From the NCBI GenBank assembly GCA_001821395.1, contig MHLM01000014.1, positions 160,001-224,000 on the forward strand: 64,000 bases of DNA, in the 5' to 3' direction. The notes below the pieces were generated by a model, which did not search any database, was not told where the DNA came from, and saw only the letters and a program-made list of their open reading frames with translations. This document shows, piece by piece, positions 35,881 to 53,148 of this stretch (position 1 is its first letter; the number at the start of each line of letters is the position of its first letter). The position numbers and the translations under genes are program-made. Origin of the DNA: Candidatus Lloydbacteria bacterium RIFCSPHIGHO2_02_FULL_50_18 (GTDB taxonomy: Bacteria > Patescibacteriota > Minisyncoccia > Phycocordibacterales > UBA6899).

Positions 35881-37242
35881 TTGAGCACACATATGGCACA
35901 ACGATCAACGGGGCTTTTAAGAAAGATCATTATTTTATCGGTTGCAGCCGTCACCATGGTGATCGCGGTCGACGTGCTGCGTGCACTCTTCCCACTACCC
36001 CAATCGTTCGCATCGGGAAGTCTCGGGTGGTATCTTTTCTCGTTCATATCGGGACTCTCTATGATCGTGCTTCCGTGCTCGCTTCCGCTCTTGTTCATCA
36101 TCTTGCCGCTCTCCCAGGGGAAGAGGCCAATGGCGGGTCTTTCGCTCGCACTTGCTTTCGGACTCGGTGTTGCGGTCATGCTCTCTTTGTATGGTGTGTT
36201 CGTCGCACTCTTGGGTGAAACGATCTTTTCGTTCGCGCACATTGAGGCCGATGATATCAAGAATGGTGTCTATTTTATTTCGGGATTTTTTGCGTACCTG
36301 TTTGCGCTCGGAGAGATCGGTCTCATCAACTTTCGCATGCCCTCCTACGTCGGTGTGACGCCCCGCGCTTTTCAAAAACACAACGGCCTCGCACGTGCAT
36401 TTTTTCTCGGTTTATTCCTTGGAAATATCGGTATCGGAAGTCCGCATCCCGCAATGCCGCTCCTCTTGATCGAGAGTGCGTCCTCCGCCGACCTGTTCTA
36501 CGGATGGTCTCTTTTTCTTACTCATGCGATTGGGCGTGTTCTCCCGCTCGTCTTACTCTCTCTTCTCGCGATGTACGGGATGAATAGTGCAGAATGGCTC
36601 CTCACTCGCAAGGAGAGGATCGTGAGCGCAAGCGGGTGGGCAATGGTCTTTGTTGCGGGATTCATTCTCACGCTTGGTCTTTTTTCGCATGATTGGTTCA
36701 CGAACTCAGGGCAGCCGTACGTACTTGAACGAATCACCGGCGGGGAGGTTTCCGGGCTCTCCCTGCATGGTGAGGTTGGGCTGCAGACCATAGGGCGACC
36801 GAATGCCGTTGCGAATGCGGTAGGAATTTTTGGGCAGCCTGCCGCGTGGGGGAACTGGTTCCTTGTTTTTCTTTGGATCATGCCGCTCGTCGCATATTAT
36901 CGTCGTGAAAAACTTCGGGTTTTCCGAACTCCCGCATTTCAAATACAAAAACTCGAACGAGAACTACTTCGCATTGAAGAAGAGCGAAGAGGGATCGAAG
37001 CGGTACTCCATATTCCTCATGGTGTGCAGGGCGCGCGGGTAAAGGAGCTTGAACATCAAATGGATGGTCTCATGAAAGAACGAACCGTGCTTGAGGAAGC
37101 GATGCGCTTCGGAACAAAAAGCGGGATCCGCGATACGGCGTCACAGCGTTATGAAGAGCAGCTCCTTCGTATGCGCCGTAACTGGTACATCACGCTCGCA
37201 CTCTTGCTTGTTCTTACCTTCGCAATATTCTTGCCGCTTTGA
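35881..37242 (+). CDS. CcdA/DsbD-type thiol-disulfide transporter TM domain with C-terminal coiled-coil extension
   Basis: MIVLPCSLPLLF TM cysteine motif; 453 aa multi-TM. Confidence 0.6.
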   Translation: MSTHMAQRSTGLLRKIIILSVAAVTMVIAVDVLRALFPLPQSFASGSLGWYLFSFISGLSMIVLPCSLPLLFIILPLSQGKRPMAGLSLALAFGLGVAVMLSLYGVFVALLGETIFSFAHIEADDIKNGVYFISGFFAYLFALGEIGLINFRMPSYVGVTPRAFQKHNGLARAFFLGLFLGNIGIGSPHPAMPLLLIESASSADLFYGWSLFLTHAIGRVLPLVLLSLLAMYGMNSAEWLLTRKERIVSASGWAMVFVAGFILTLGLFSHDWFTNSGQPYVLERITGGEVSGLSLHGEVGLQTIGRPNAVANAVGIFGQPAAWGNWFLVFLWIMPLVAYYRREKLRVFRTPAFQIQKLERELLRIEEERRGIEAVLHIPHGVQGARVKELEHQMDGLMKERTVLEEAMRFGTKSGIRDTASQRYEEQLLRMRRNWYITLALLLVLTFAIFLPL

Positions 37243-48517: not shown

Positions 48518-49762
48518 ATGTCTTCATTTTTTTACACAGCAAGATCAGCAAGTCGCGCCGTCGGTGCCAACCGGGTCCGTTCCGGTCTTACGGTCCTCGG
48601 TATCGTGATCGGTGTCACGTCGATCATCCTTATCGTCTCGATCGGTGAGGGTGCGCAGTCGCTCATCCTGGGGCAAATTCAAGGCTTGGGAGCTGAGACC
48701 ATCGTGATACGCCCGGGGAGAAAGCCGTCCGGTCCGACGGATATGGCGCAGACATTATTTGCGGACTCCATCAAGCAGCGAGAGGTTGACGCATTGAAAC
48801 GTAAGGAAAACGTACCCGACTATGTCTCCTCAGCACCGCTGCTCATGGTGTCGGATTCAGTGACCTACGGTTCCAACATTGAGCATCCTACGATCTACGG
48901 TTGGTCTGCAGAGTTCATGGTAAGCATGATAAAAGCAAAGATAAGAGTCGGAACTATTTTTGATGAGGAGGATATAAAACAGGAAGCGGCGGTTGCGGTG
49001 CTTGGGAGTCAGATTTCCGATGATCTGTTCGCGGGTGATGATCCTATCGGGAAGTCTATTCGCATTGGGACGAAAAATTTTCGCGTTGTCGCAGTGCTTC
49101 AAGGGGGTGGGGGAGGGCTTTTGAACACAGACAAGATGGTGGTGATCCCGTACTCTACTGCGCTTACGTACCTCTCGTCAGGGAAACATTACAATGAGGT
49201 CATGTTGAAGGTCTCTTCGCCGGAAGCTGTGGCGCGTTCCGTTGAGGACATCAAAGCGACGCTTCGGGAACTGCACAGCATTACCGATCCTGCGAAAGAT
49301 GATTTTTATGTCGAGACACAGCAGGCGGCGATAGATCAGATCGGTACCATACTTTCGGTGCTCACTGCATTTCTTTCCGCGGTGGTCGCGATATCGCTCG
49401 TCGTCGGCGGCATCGGCGTGATGAATGTCATGCTCGTATCGGTCACCGAGCGTACAAAAGAGATTGGTCTGCGAAAGGCGCTCGGTGCGACCAATAGTGA
49501 TATTTTGACGCAATTCTTGCTCGAGGCGGTGCTCCTCACTATGGTGGGAGGTGCGATCGGCATTGTCCTCGGGGTCCTGTTCGGTTATGGCGCATCTATT
49601 GCCTTATCGCAAAATCTTAATGTCGATTGGGCGTTCGCATTCCCATGGAGAGCGGCGCTCATCGGTCTTGGTGTTTCCGGCGGCGTGGGTATCGTCTTTG
49701 GGATCTATCCTGCACGGCAGGCTTCACAGAAGAGTCCGATCGAGGCGCTCCGTTACGAGTAA
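48518..49762 (+). CDS. ABC transporter permease, FtsX/MacB-type
   Basis: N-terminal TM + periplasmic domain + C-terminal 3-TM FtsX pattern. Confidence 0.8.
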   Translation: MSSFFYTARSASRAVGANRVRSGLTVLGIVIGVTSIILIVSIGEGAQSLILGQIQGLGAETIVIRPGRKPSGPTDMAQTLFADSIKQREVDALKRKENVPDYVSSAPLLMVSDSVTYGSNIEHPTIYGWSAEFMVSMIKAKIRVGTIFDEEDIKQEAAVAVLGSQISDDLFAGDDPIGKSIRIGTKNFRVVAVLQGGGGGLLNTDKMVVIPYSTALTYLSSGKHYNEVMLKVSSPEAVARSVEDIKATLRELHSITDPAKDDFYVETQQAAIDQIGTILSVLTAFLSAVVAISLVVGGIGVMNVMLVSVTERTKEIGLRKALGATNSDILTQFLLEAVLLTMVGGAIGIVLGVLFGYGASIALSQNLNVDWAFAFPWRAALIGLGVSGGVGIVFGIYPARQASQKSPIEALRYE

Positions 49763-49771
49763 GTCCCGCTC

Positions 49772-49903
49772 GGGTTTTCTTCTTTTGAAAGGCACACAGT
49801 CGGCCCCTCCTGCGGGGGCCGCTGTCACTCTCGGCCAATTGCCCCATCAGAATGGGGACCAAGCCAATTGTCCTCCGAGAGGCCTTTCAAAAGAAGAAAA
49901 CCC
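49772..49903. repeat. 132-bp element with 22-bp perfect terminal inverted repeats and nested internal hairpins (MITE-like / structured element)
   Basis: GGGTTTTCTTCTTTTGAAAGGC ... GCCTTTCAAAAGAAGAAAACCC; internal GGCCCC/GGGGCC, CTCTCGG/CCGAGAG, CCCCA/TGGGG stems; CCAATTG repeated. Confidence 0.6.
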
Positions 49904-50145
49904 TCGCCTCAGAGGAGCGGCGTTTGAGTTTGGTGCCCGCAGGTGGAGAAGAAACACTTGGCAGAATAGCTAGTTAGTGCGAGTATGTTTAGTAACTCGT
50001 GACCGAGTTCTCGGGAGGAAACGAGCGAAATTAGAATACGCAAAACATGAATATAGTGTATTTATCCCCATTCTCAGAGACTTGGGTTGCAAAGGGCTTG
50101 CAGGCTGAGTATTTTCAACTCCTAAACGAGTTTAAAAAATAAAAT

Positions 50146-50505
50146 ATGAATATAAATATAAAAGCATTACATTTTTTGGGATTACCGATTAAAAGAGAAA
50201 TCTATACAAAAGCAATTTGCTCACTCTTCGGAATACTCATTTTATTTTTTGTTGTACTGGTCGTCGTGCCTTCGGTGGTTTGGCAGGCAGTACCATATTT
50301 GCTTTGGGCAATTATAATTATGTATGTTTTCTATATCGGAATTGCTCTCATTGTCTCTTTTTATCTCATAAGTCGAAGACTTAAAACCTTGGGATATTCC
50401 ACGCTGTGGATGATACTGATGTTCTTTCCAATCTTTTTTGTTTTTGTGGTGCTCGGTCTTATGGCACCAAGTGATGAAAAAATAGTTTACAAAATTTCAG
50501 CCTAG
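50146..50505 (+). CDS. DUF805-family inner-membrane protein
   Basis: ISRRLKTLGYSTLWMILMFFPIFFVFVVLG resembles DUF805 RRLHDxGxSGWW motif; in AT-rich islet. Confidence 0.5.
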   Translation: MNINIKALHFLGLPIKREIYTKAICSLFGILILFFVVLVVVPSVVWQAVPYLLWAIIIMYVFYIGIALIVSFYLISRRLKTLGYSTLWMILMFFPIFFVFVVLGLMAPSDEKIVYKISA

Positions 50506-50546
50506 TTTGGGGCAATCACACTGACCCCAGTGGACCAAAGTTGGGA

Positions 50547-51218
50547 ATGTGGATTATTGCATTATTTGGAGGAAACAAAATCCTCACCCATATGAAATCA
50601 AAGAAGAAGCCCGTAATAGAGCACAAAAGAAAGATACGAAACATAAGTGACTATGTTTATGACTGCCTCAACCGCCTGCGTGACCACGCTGACCTCATTT
50701 TATATCTTGGTAAACACAAGGACGACTTTGCCGGGGGTACACCAAAACAAAGCCTCTCTATAATTATTTCAATGATCGACGTCTATTCAAGGGATGCCAT
50801 TGTTATTTTCGGCACAATTTTTGATAAGAATAGGCAGACATCATCACTTTATACGATGGTTGACCACATAAAAGATGAGAAGAAGCGGAAGCGTTATCAG
50901 AAGAGGCTAGATAATATAAAAACATCTATAAATCAAATAGTCCGTGCCAGAGGAAATCAGGTTGGTCATTTCAATACAAAACTGAATATCCACGACAACC
51001 ACGACAATGGCTTTATTCATATCAACGGTGTTTTTCAGGTGGACCCACGCTTTACAAAAAAGATAGCAAATAGAATAGAGCGATTTTACTGGGATATTAG
51101 AGAAGAGCTTGGGGTTGAAGGAACTTTTGTTTTTCACAAAGGAGAACCAACCGCAAAGTCATTTGCCAGATTGGTCGGCAAGGCACCCAAGCGCTTGAGT
51201 GGTGGTATAAAAACTTAA
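50547..51218 (+). CDS. hypothetical protein with HEPN-like Rx5H motif (possible Abi-like)
   Basis: RARGNQVGH motif in predicted helical protein; AT-rich context; start uncertain (TTG 50541/ATG 50547/ATG 50592). Confidence 0.35.
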   Translation: MWIIALFGGNKILTHMKSKKKPVIEHKRKIRNISDYVYDCLNRLRDHADLILYLGKHKDDFAGGTPKQSLSIIISMIDVYSRDAIVIFGTIFDKNRQTSSLYTMVDHIKDEKKRKRYQKRLDNIKTSINQIVRARGNQVGHFNTKLNIHDNHDNGFIHINGVFQVDPRFTKKIANRIERFYWDIREELGVEGTFVFHKGEPTAKSFARLVGKAPKRLSGGIKT

Positions 51219-51395
51219 ACCTTGATACCCAATGTAGTGGGGTAGGGTGTGGGAATATAGATTGTCGCATCATTTAATCGTTCAAACACAGTTCTAACGT
51301 CCTCTACGACGCGACGGCTGGTCTTGGGCGAGTAAATAGACAGACGATATGCAAATTGCTAGGGTGGAGGCAGTTGTTCAATACAAGGAGTTTTT

Positions 51396-52169
51396 ATGAG
51401 GCCATATATTGGTATTTGCGACTTTACCGCACCGGAACAAGCGCATCGCCTGCTCCAGTTGATCCCTCACGGATTTTCTCATGACCTTATGGTCGGCGTG
51501 ATGATGAGCTATAAAACGCTCAATAATCTTCCGACAAAATGGGCAAGGGTGTTTCCTGCGAAAAAGAATATTCGATCGATCTTCGTCGATGATCCGCGCG
51601 TCTTGAATACCATTCATTATGCCGATTATGCCACAGGGGTTGATGCCGATCGACAGCTCGCGTATACGCTGGCCAAGGTGGAGATCTACGGCGGAGCGTG
51701 TCTTGGGGCGATCCAGCTCGATATGATCTGGCCGGATCCGGATGAGCTCAAGAAGTTTCGCGAGCACTGTAATATCCCCATCATCCTGCAGGTTGGTGCG
51801 AATGCGATGCGCGAATGCGGCGATGACCCCATTGCAACCTGTGAGCGATTGAAGACGTATGGCACTACGATCAATGCCGTACTTTTTGATAAAAGCATGG
51901 GTCGCGGGGTGGGGATGGATGCCGCGCTCTTGGCGAAGTATGCGGGAGTGCTTTCGTTCGACTGCCCGCATCTTGCACCCGCAGTGGCCGGGGGGCTTGG
52001 TCCGTCATCAATGGACCTCGTGGCACCGCTCATTCGAGCGTTTCCCGATCTTTCGATCGACGCACAGGGGCGGCTGCGTAAGAGCGGCAACATGAAAGAC
52101 CCGATCGATTGGTCGATGGCGGAAGATTATTTCACGCAAGCGGTGGCACTGTTTTCCAAACAACCGTAA
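51396..52169 (+). CDS. phosphoribosylanthranilate isomerase (TrpF)-like TIM-barrel protein
   Basis: LFDKSMGRGVGMDAALL and VAGGLGPSSMDL resemble TrpF GGSG..FDW / LAGGL motifs. Confidence 0.5.
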   Translation: MRPYIGICDFTAPEQAHRLLQLIPHGFSHDLMVGVMMSYKTLNNLPTKWARVFPAKKNIRSIFVDDPRVLNTIHYADYATGVDADRQLAYTLAKVEIYGGACLGAIQLDMIWPDPDELKKFREHCNIPIILQVGANAMRECGDDPIATCERLKTYGTTINAVLFDKSMGRGVGMDAALLAKYAGVLSFDCPHLAPAVAGGLGPSSMDLVAPLIRAFPDLSIDAQGRLRKSGNMKDPIDWSMAEDYFTQAVALFSKQP

Positions 52170-52979: not shown

Positions 52980-53110
52980 TTGGATTCCACGCAAATGGTG
53001 AACTTCTTTGTTGCGGGGCCCCTATGATTCGGTCACCATATAAGAATATGCCTTCCTCGTCACTTTCCCCGCGTCTCGAATTTCATCCATTTGTATGAAA
53101 TCCAGTCGAT

Positions 53111-53141
53111 AAAAAAAGACCCTGCAAAGGGTCTTTTTTTA
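53111..53141. terminator. bidirectional terminator GACCCT-GCAAA-AGGGTC flanked by A7/T7
   Basis: between convergent genes. Confidence 0.65.
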
Positions 53142-53148
53142 TATGATG

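Follow-up and report, generated by a model that had tools for sequence, protein, structure and literature searches.

The DNA analysed here, a 64-kb stretch that we refer to as the window, carries an operon for an HlyD-like protein, an ABC ATPase and, as its final gene, a MacB_PCD/FtsX-type permease. Directly behind this last gene lies a short palindromic element (Table 1). The permease gene ends with a TAA codon at 49760-49762 and the element starts 9 nt downstream, a placement already recognised in the initial annotation. An identical permease is encoded by a Candidatus Lloydbacteria MAG (Parcubacteria, candidate phyla radiation [CPR]; GCA_001818945.1, contig MHLI01000022.1), and the same locus is present in several ENA and Logan assemblies; four of these contigs (L003-L006) stop inside the element. 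No recombinase, integrase, nickase, replication gene or transposase was found among the neighbouring genes, and a simple scan detected no promoter-like site preceding the element. Further downstream, at 51396-52169, is a gene for a 257-aa protein that has no match in Pfam, NCBIfam, PHROG or PADLOC. Close to 700 homologues of this protein occur across Patescibacteria, including Yanofskybacteria and Berkelbacteria, the best-scoring of them with 47-65% identity; it forms a conserved CPR protein family, and its gene has a conserved upstream region (GACAG...TTGCTAGGGTGGAG...GTTGTTCA).

Table 1. Features of the permease locus and of the palindromic element, in window coordinates
Feature	Position	Strand	Basis and remarks
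MacB_PCD/FtsX-type ABC permease gene	48518..49762	+	ORF list; Pfam MacB_PCD 1.3e-38, FtsX 5.9e-20
Outer helix P0, 5' strand CCGCTC	49766..49771	+	Consensus fold; pairs with 49915-49920
Stem P1, 5' arm (left terminal inverted repeat)	49772..49793	+	Repeat search, fold, covariation
Hairpin 1, CGGCCCC / GGGGCCG, loop UCCUGCG	49796..49825	+	Folds, covariation
Hairpin 2	49828..49881	+	Folds; basal, middle and apical helices and a 3' bulge
Stem P1, 3' arm (right terminal inverted repeat)	49882..49903	+	Repeat search, covariation
Conserved 3' flank	49904..49933	+	Alignments; most columns identical between window and L104
AT-rich islet (approximate borders)	49935..51335	+	Composition; separate insertion outside the element

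Sequence and predicted fold of the element

The left arm of the element, GGGTTTTCTTCTTTTGAAAGGC, is the exact 22-nt reverse complement of the right arm, which bears out the perfect 22-bp terminal inverted repeats described initially. The arm sequence is confined to these two places in the 64-kb window, even when up to three mismatches are allowed, and matched in none of 100 shuffles; the arm pair is also the longest inverted repeat within 400 nt in the whole 64 kb. With a total of 132 bp, the element is short, non-coding and bounded by 22-nt perfect terminal repeats, and in this respect resembles a miniature inverted-repeat transposable element (MITE).

Folding of 151 nt of RNA around the element gave a three-way junction composed of stem P1 and hairpins 1 and 2, and the interior of this computed fold agrees with the nested hairpins of the initial annotation. 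The minimum free energy of the + strand was -81.4 kcal/mol versus -47.9 ± 4.2 for dinucleotide shuffles (z = -8.0; none of 200 as good), and the minus strand folded roughly equally well (-83.2, z = -6.5). Hairpin 1 has a 7-nt loop (49808-49814) with a possible closing U.G pair. Hairpin 2 is built from a basal helix (CTCTCGG/CCGAGAG), a middle helix (CAATTG/CAATTG) and an apical hairpin (CCCCAT-CAGA-ATGGGG), with a 7-nt bulge on its 3' side (ACCAAGC, 49858-49864); copies of GCCAATTG lie at 49834 and 49863. In the flank beyond P1, a linker (TCGCCTCAGAG) leads to the 3' strand of P0 (GAGCGG, 49915-49920), which is followed by a tail moderately rich in U (CGTTTGAGTTTGG, 49921-49933). Hairpin 2 is also complementary over 10 nt to 50065-50074, a match no better than expected by chance.

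The curated structured RNA families of Rfam are defined by covarying multi-helix folds with conserved loops, such as the element has. However, no family of Rfam 15 overlapped it in a search of 49500-50300 with permissive filters (E up to 10), and the sole match at the gathering threshold in the whole window was a tRNA elsewhere. Neither a hammerhead-like nor any other conserved junction core was visible in the fold, and no conserved junction nucleotides hint at the core of a ribozyme or riboswitch.

Orthologous loci and covariation of the stems

Orthologous loci, a comparison that had been proposed with the initial annotation, were retrieved through homologues of the permease and of the downstream 257-aa gene, and the site after the ftsX-type stop codon proved to be occupied in several species. 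L104 (GCA_043719805.1), whose permease is 85-86% identical, carries a complete 142-nt element at exactly the same position, and L108 (Logan SRR22388089) a complete 139-nt element directly after the orthologous stop codon. Two further Logan contigs, L099 and L105, hold left halves and end a few dozen nucleotides into the element; L111 (Logan SRR22198353) is partial and begins within the right half, which matches the 3' side of hairpin 2 in L108. In L107, with a permease 79% identical, there is a remnant with a 12-mer of the window's left arm, followed by the upstream region of the next gene. Lacking both the remaining element and the 257-aa gene, this remnant looks like a deletion. Its sequence after the stop codon (L107:4919-4970, GGGGTTTTCTTCT...GCAC...AGCCCCCGCC) corresponds to the left arm in the window and to the beginning of hairpin 1. 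The more distant relatives L100, L102, L106 and L110 have no element, and their intergenic DNA is too diverged for a clean empty site to be read; folding does not favour a CACTC/GAGTG repeat in L110, and this repeat overlaps a promoter-like site. The ftsX orthologue of GCA_043719805.1 is split into two overlapping ORFs of 114 and 305 aa (L104:9675-10918), either by a frameshift or by an assembly error.

The complete copies (window, L104 and L108) share one architecture, with a P1 of 21-23 bp, a hairpin 1 loop of UCCWGCG and a 7-nt bulge, and the interior has the same orientation in the window, L104, L105 and L108. The loop reads UCCUGCG in the window and L104 and UCCAGCG in L108, on a stem that covaries. 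The bulge is ACCAAGC in the window, CCCAAGC in L104 and ACCGATC in L108; beyond the base of hairpin 2, this three-species match is a reading by hand, and the minimum-energy fold of L108 pairs the region differently. The flanks carry CCGCTC upstream and CCCTCGCYT.AGAG.AGYGGCGTT downstream. Loop, bulge and flanks are conserved around stems whose sequences have heavily changed.

Between the window and L104, 19 of the 43 consensus pairs have changed on both sides. Among all three species, that is in three complete sequences of a single locus, this number rises to 24, a value reached in none of 500 shuffles. In the model-based alignment of the three species, 96.9% of cells were paired versus 48-65% when the partners were slid by 1-3 columns. 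A covariance model made from the window and L104 alone found L108 with 63.5 bits (E = 6e-13). Compensatory changes in independent lineages are a general mark of structured functional RNAs, although constraint on the DNA would give the same pattern.

Stems P1 and P0 have changed in different ways. In P1, 16 of 21 pairs have changed on both sides among the three species, about half of these double changes are transversion-type flips, G.U occurs in none of the 63 cells and mismatches number 0 or 1 per species. The six pairs of P0 are formed in every species (100%), and the two that vary do so on one side only, each yielding G.U or U.G. Among the element-bearing species, identity at four-fold degenerate ftsX sites is only 46-58%; unselected stems would therefore carry many mismatches, and hence the pairing must be actively maintained, either by selection or by a homogenising process. 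The change of stem pairs on both sides in the absence of G.U intermediates points to one arm serving as template for correction of the other. The two strands have folds of similar stability, and that of the minus strand is the better one in L108; thermodynamics thus does not mark the + strand RNA as the functional form. The arms of L104 show essentially no relation to the arms of L099, its nearest relative, although the two permeases are 93% identical. As synonymous sites between these two are about 50% diverged, drift with compensation could have occurred; steady drift in situ nevertheless explains the difference less easily than replacement does, and the arms may have been replaced by recombination.

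Further copies were not found. The covariance model detected none in 186 kb of Lloydbacteria DNA that included the whole window (itself about 6% of an assumed genome of ~1 Mb), and a minus-strand match at 36455-36529 (E = 1.2) was noise. Scans with the arms (20-mers for genome contigs and 19-mers for metagenome contigs, in collections without the source genome) returned single-arm chance matches in unrelated organisms. Phage and plasmid collections gave no blastn match to the element, and a six-frame translation, used to reveal ORFs wrongly predicted in further copies, had no relatives among 5.8 billion proteins, which is weak negative evidence. To judge from the sequences compared, the element is real, non-random and conserved in structure, and as far as seen is confined to one locus in a small Lloydbacteria clade.

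Variable DNA downstream of the element

An AT-rich stretch of ~1.4 kb had been noted after the element, and GC content indeed falls to 0.34-0.43 between ~50000 and 51200, as against ~0.5-0.58 on either side. This islet contains ORFs at 50146-50505 and 50541-51218. The first encodes a 119-aa multi-pass membrane protein with weak, sub-threshold matches to ABC2_membrane_2 and DUF805, and the second a 225-aa protein with a weak, sub-threshold match to an AbiU2-type HEPN family; neither has a confident family assignment. In L108 the upstream region of the conserved 257-aa gene (GACAGACGATATGCAAATTGCTAGGGTGGAG...) begins ~20 nt after the element, while in the window it lies 1.4 kb further on. The islet is absent from L108, L102 and L110, which makes it an insertion between the end of the operon and the region upstream of the next gene. 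As L108 has the element without the islet, the islet is a separate insertion of which the element is independent. The apparent link between the two is thus coincidental, and the idea that the element is a border or attachment site of the islet was rejected on the same grounds.

Other lineages differ at this spot as well. L104 has a different islet of about 0.55 kb with a 95-aa ORF, and L111 has about 75 extra nt downstream. A further contig, L112 (sample ERZ4903070), matches the window at 99% identity over 3.8 kb that start at 50053, and its left 139 nt are unrelated and AT-rich; position 50052/50053 (L112:139/140) is a strain-level breakpoint, due to rearrangement or insertion, in the left part of the islet. 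These alignments indicate that structural changes and small insertions, also between strains, concentrate in a hotspot just behind the element.

Seven contigs break inside the element: L003, L004, L005, L006, L099 and L105 at their ends and L111 at its start. Both the samples and the assemblers (Logan k=31, MEGAHIT k141) were independent, and L006 ends in garbled homopolymer runs. Poor reads across a hairpin of about -80 kcal/mol, or else population heterogeneity, probably explain the breaks. In practice, the element is an assembly hazard. Flip-flop inversion between the 22-bp repeats was considered as the cause and rejected as unsupported: all contigs that extend into the interior from the ftsX side share one orientation, and the breaks are scattered and do not lie at the repeat edge.

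Candidate roles of the element

We tentatively favour a role of the element, in one subclade of Candidatus Lloydbacteria, as a lineage-specific structured module at the 3' end of the mRNA from the HlyD/ABC/FtsX operon. Today it behaves as a vertically inherited, selected structure of a single locus, and we infer that the functional form is RNA. A role at the RNA level is favoured by the site of the element between the stop codon and a conserved helix with a U-rich tail, by its fixed orientation and conserved specific unpaired residues, and by the tolerance of G.U on the + strand in P0, as would be anticipated of an RNA helix. RNA polymerase would transcribe the element together with the permease gene, and the transcript would fold into a bulky structure at the 3' terminus of the mRNA, which may aid termination, block 3' exonucleases or do both. 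Substrates of RNase III are typically about two turns of duplex in length. Stem P1, as perfect duplex of about two helical turns, would be a plausible site for processing by this enzyme, and the hairpin 1 loop and hairpin 2 bulge may be contact points for a factor. The lack of G.U pairs and the transversion flips in P1 are, however, unusual for an RNA helix.

The element may have arisen when a palindromic, MITE-like sequence inserted into a small hairpin behind the stop codon. The insert-free hairpin that we reconstructed has a free energy of -9 to -10.6 kcal/mol and a z score of about 0. The flanks prompted the idea that an ancestral canonical terminator received the element in its loop. This idea is weakened: the insert-free hairpins are no better than their shuffles, and the supposed empty site in L110 is unconvincing. 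We also considered a small ORF after an SD-like GAGGAG in the 3' flank; by eye, the short ORFs are unconserved between species.

Several known systems resemble this structure in part. Like intrinsic terminators, including the SPRITE-type terminator-like repeats, the element lies directly after the last gene of an operon, has a G+C-rich helix (P0) followed by a U-containing tail and has stems that drift by compensatory change. However, at ~155 nt it is large and branched, versus 20-40 nt for intrinsic terminators, its U tract is poor (CGUUUGAGUUUGG), and between P0 and P1 there is an asymmetric loop of 11 nt. P0 and its tail were not called by a simple terminator scan. Positions 49904-49933 may represent the 3' half of an intrinsic terminator, but the insert-free hairpin is unremarkable. 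Taken by itself, a reading as a terminator is weak. If the element proved to be only an oversized terminator, its interest would be restricted to one small clade.

The Correia elements of Neisseria and the ERIC elements of enterobacteria share with our element a size of 100-150 bp, long terminal inverted repeats and the formation of a long hairpin when co-transcribed with an upstream gene. RNase III cleaves Correia transcripts within the repeats, and mRNA decay is altered by ERIC copies at the 3' ends of genes (PMC10969869). A 22-bp perfect stem just past a stop codon could, by analogy, act in the same way. The differences are that Correia and ERIC elements are dispersed in tens to hundreds of copies per genome with a family consensus, whereas here one locus is known, and that in our element the stems differ between species with the fold kept, the interior is a three-way junction and loop residues are conserved.

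An alternative to a role in the transcript is that the functional form is DNA, a near-perfect palindrome that forms a hairpin or cruciform when single-stranded or supercoiled, whose arms are kept perfect by intramolecular template switching and which destabilises the adjacent DNA, leading to breakage, insertion and rearrangement. The Watson-Crick-only pairing of P1, with no G.U in 63 cells and with many transversion-type double changes, is consistent with this, as is the equal folding of both strands. The variable DNA downstream (1.4 kb in the window, ~0.55 kb in L104, ~75 nt in L111 and nothing in L108, besides the strain breakpoint at 50052/50053) and the seven contigs that break inside the element in independent assemblies would also fit. 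Nevertheless, we consider this alternative unlikely. Against it stand an asymmetric interior held in a fixed orientation across species, the conservation of specific unpaired residues and a P0 that tolerates G.U on the + strand only, and there is no adjacent recombinase, nickase or replication gene. The contig breaks, moreover, can also result from poor sequencing of a -80 kcal/mol hairpin, as the garbled end of L006 illustrates.

It may also be that the element is an sRNA gene or gives rise to a 3'-UTR-derived sRNA, such that RNase III cutting in P1 or termination after P0 releases a stable RNA of ~100-170 nt that acts in trans, its UCCWGCG loop and bulge being bound to a protein or to a target RNA. 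Conserved loop and bulge sequences on covarying stems, the constant length of P1 (21-23 bp) and the conservation of the flanks as far as the U-rich tail point in this direction. We regard such a role as quite unlikely, however, as no promoter-like site lies ahead of the element, no complementary target was found and the element occurs at one locus in one small clade with no relative in Rfam.

The initial annotation had listed a MITE, an elaborate terminator or attenuator and a structured sRNA as possible identities. The strong covariation appears to fit the structural options among these, and the MITE option is left without positive support. In its most explicit form, this option would hold that the element belongs to a family of dispersed palindromic repeats that is still or was recently mobile, and that the L104 arms mark the replacement of one copy by another family member at a preferred target. 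Perfect terminal inverted repeats are present, bacterial MITEs, ERIC and Correia among them, are typically of this size (PMC10969869), the L104 arms are unrelated to those of L099 and contigs frequently break at the element. If the repeat is read as 21 bp, it is flanked on both sides by CTCG (49769-49772 and 49903-49906), and the same is seen in L104; in L108 the flanks are CTCA and CTCG. This candidate 4-bp target-site duplication is the only trait of the kind, and it is weak: it is short, overlaps P0, is imperfect in L108 and is shared by descent, so that it would record one event at most. Set against these traits are the lack of a second copy in the 64-kb window or in the 186 kb of related DNA, of any translated trace among 5.8 billion proteins and of a transposase nearby. 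Furthermore, one orthologous site has been inherited in several species; it is filled in five lineages and its stems remain paired despite ~50% neutral divergence, whereas dead MITE copies decay. In the DNA compared, present mobility of this kind is unsupported, and we regard the MITE reading as rather improbable.

It is conceivable, if improbable, that the element stands for a new class of CPR module, being either a branched, Watson-Crick-perfect palindrome with arm-to-arm correction that acts as a fragile or landing site and captures small ORF islets directly downstream, or a protein-binding sRNA that RNase III cuts out of the 3' end of an mRNA. Should either the fragile-site or the RNase III-excised sRNA reading be true, the element would be neither a relic of the ERIC/Correia type nor an oversized terminator. 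Non-coding structure in CPR bacteria is almost unexplored, and the literature that we searched contains no description of such an element in these organisms. With a selected fold, a defined site and conserved loop residues, the element is a concrete example of what may be a new RNA (or DNA-hairpin) motif, and nature provides in it a test of how persistent a long perfect palindrome is.

The least probable of the roles that we considered is that of a docking site for small gene cassettes, in the manner of a phage attachment site or of an integron attC in its folded form, and we view it as most improbable. Integron attC sites are imperfect palindromes of 57-141 bp that are conserved in structure and not in sequence, are sometimes branched distally and lie beside variable ORFs. 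A structure that is kept while its sequence varies and a downstream cargo that differs between lineages are reminiscent of attC, and a docking site would explain the differing ORF islets. However, the element ends in GGGTTTT / AAAACCC in place of the R'/R'' cores (RYYYAAC / GTTRRRY), its stem is perfect with no extrahelical bases, and there is neither an integrase or recombinase in the neighbourhood nor an array, a second element being absent after the cargo ORFs. In addition, the islets begin past the U-rich tail and thus outside the element, and L108 has the element without cargo. A retron ncRNA, a type III antitoxin array and attC were likewise set aside, there being no reverse transcriptase, tandem repeats or integrase nearby.

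Other hairpins occur in the same DNA. Between the convergent cyclophilin and PspC genes, positions 53109-53142 form a perfect 15-bp hairpin with A7/T7 flanks, a textbook bidirectional intrinsic terminator that provides a canonical contrast to the element from the same genome. A perfect palindrome of 40 bp, whose arms abut directly (AATTACCATATAATACGCCA / TGGCGTATTATATGGTAATT), lies at 1508-1547.
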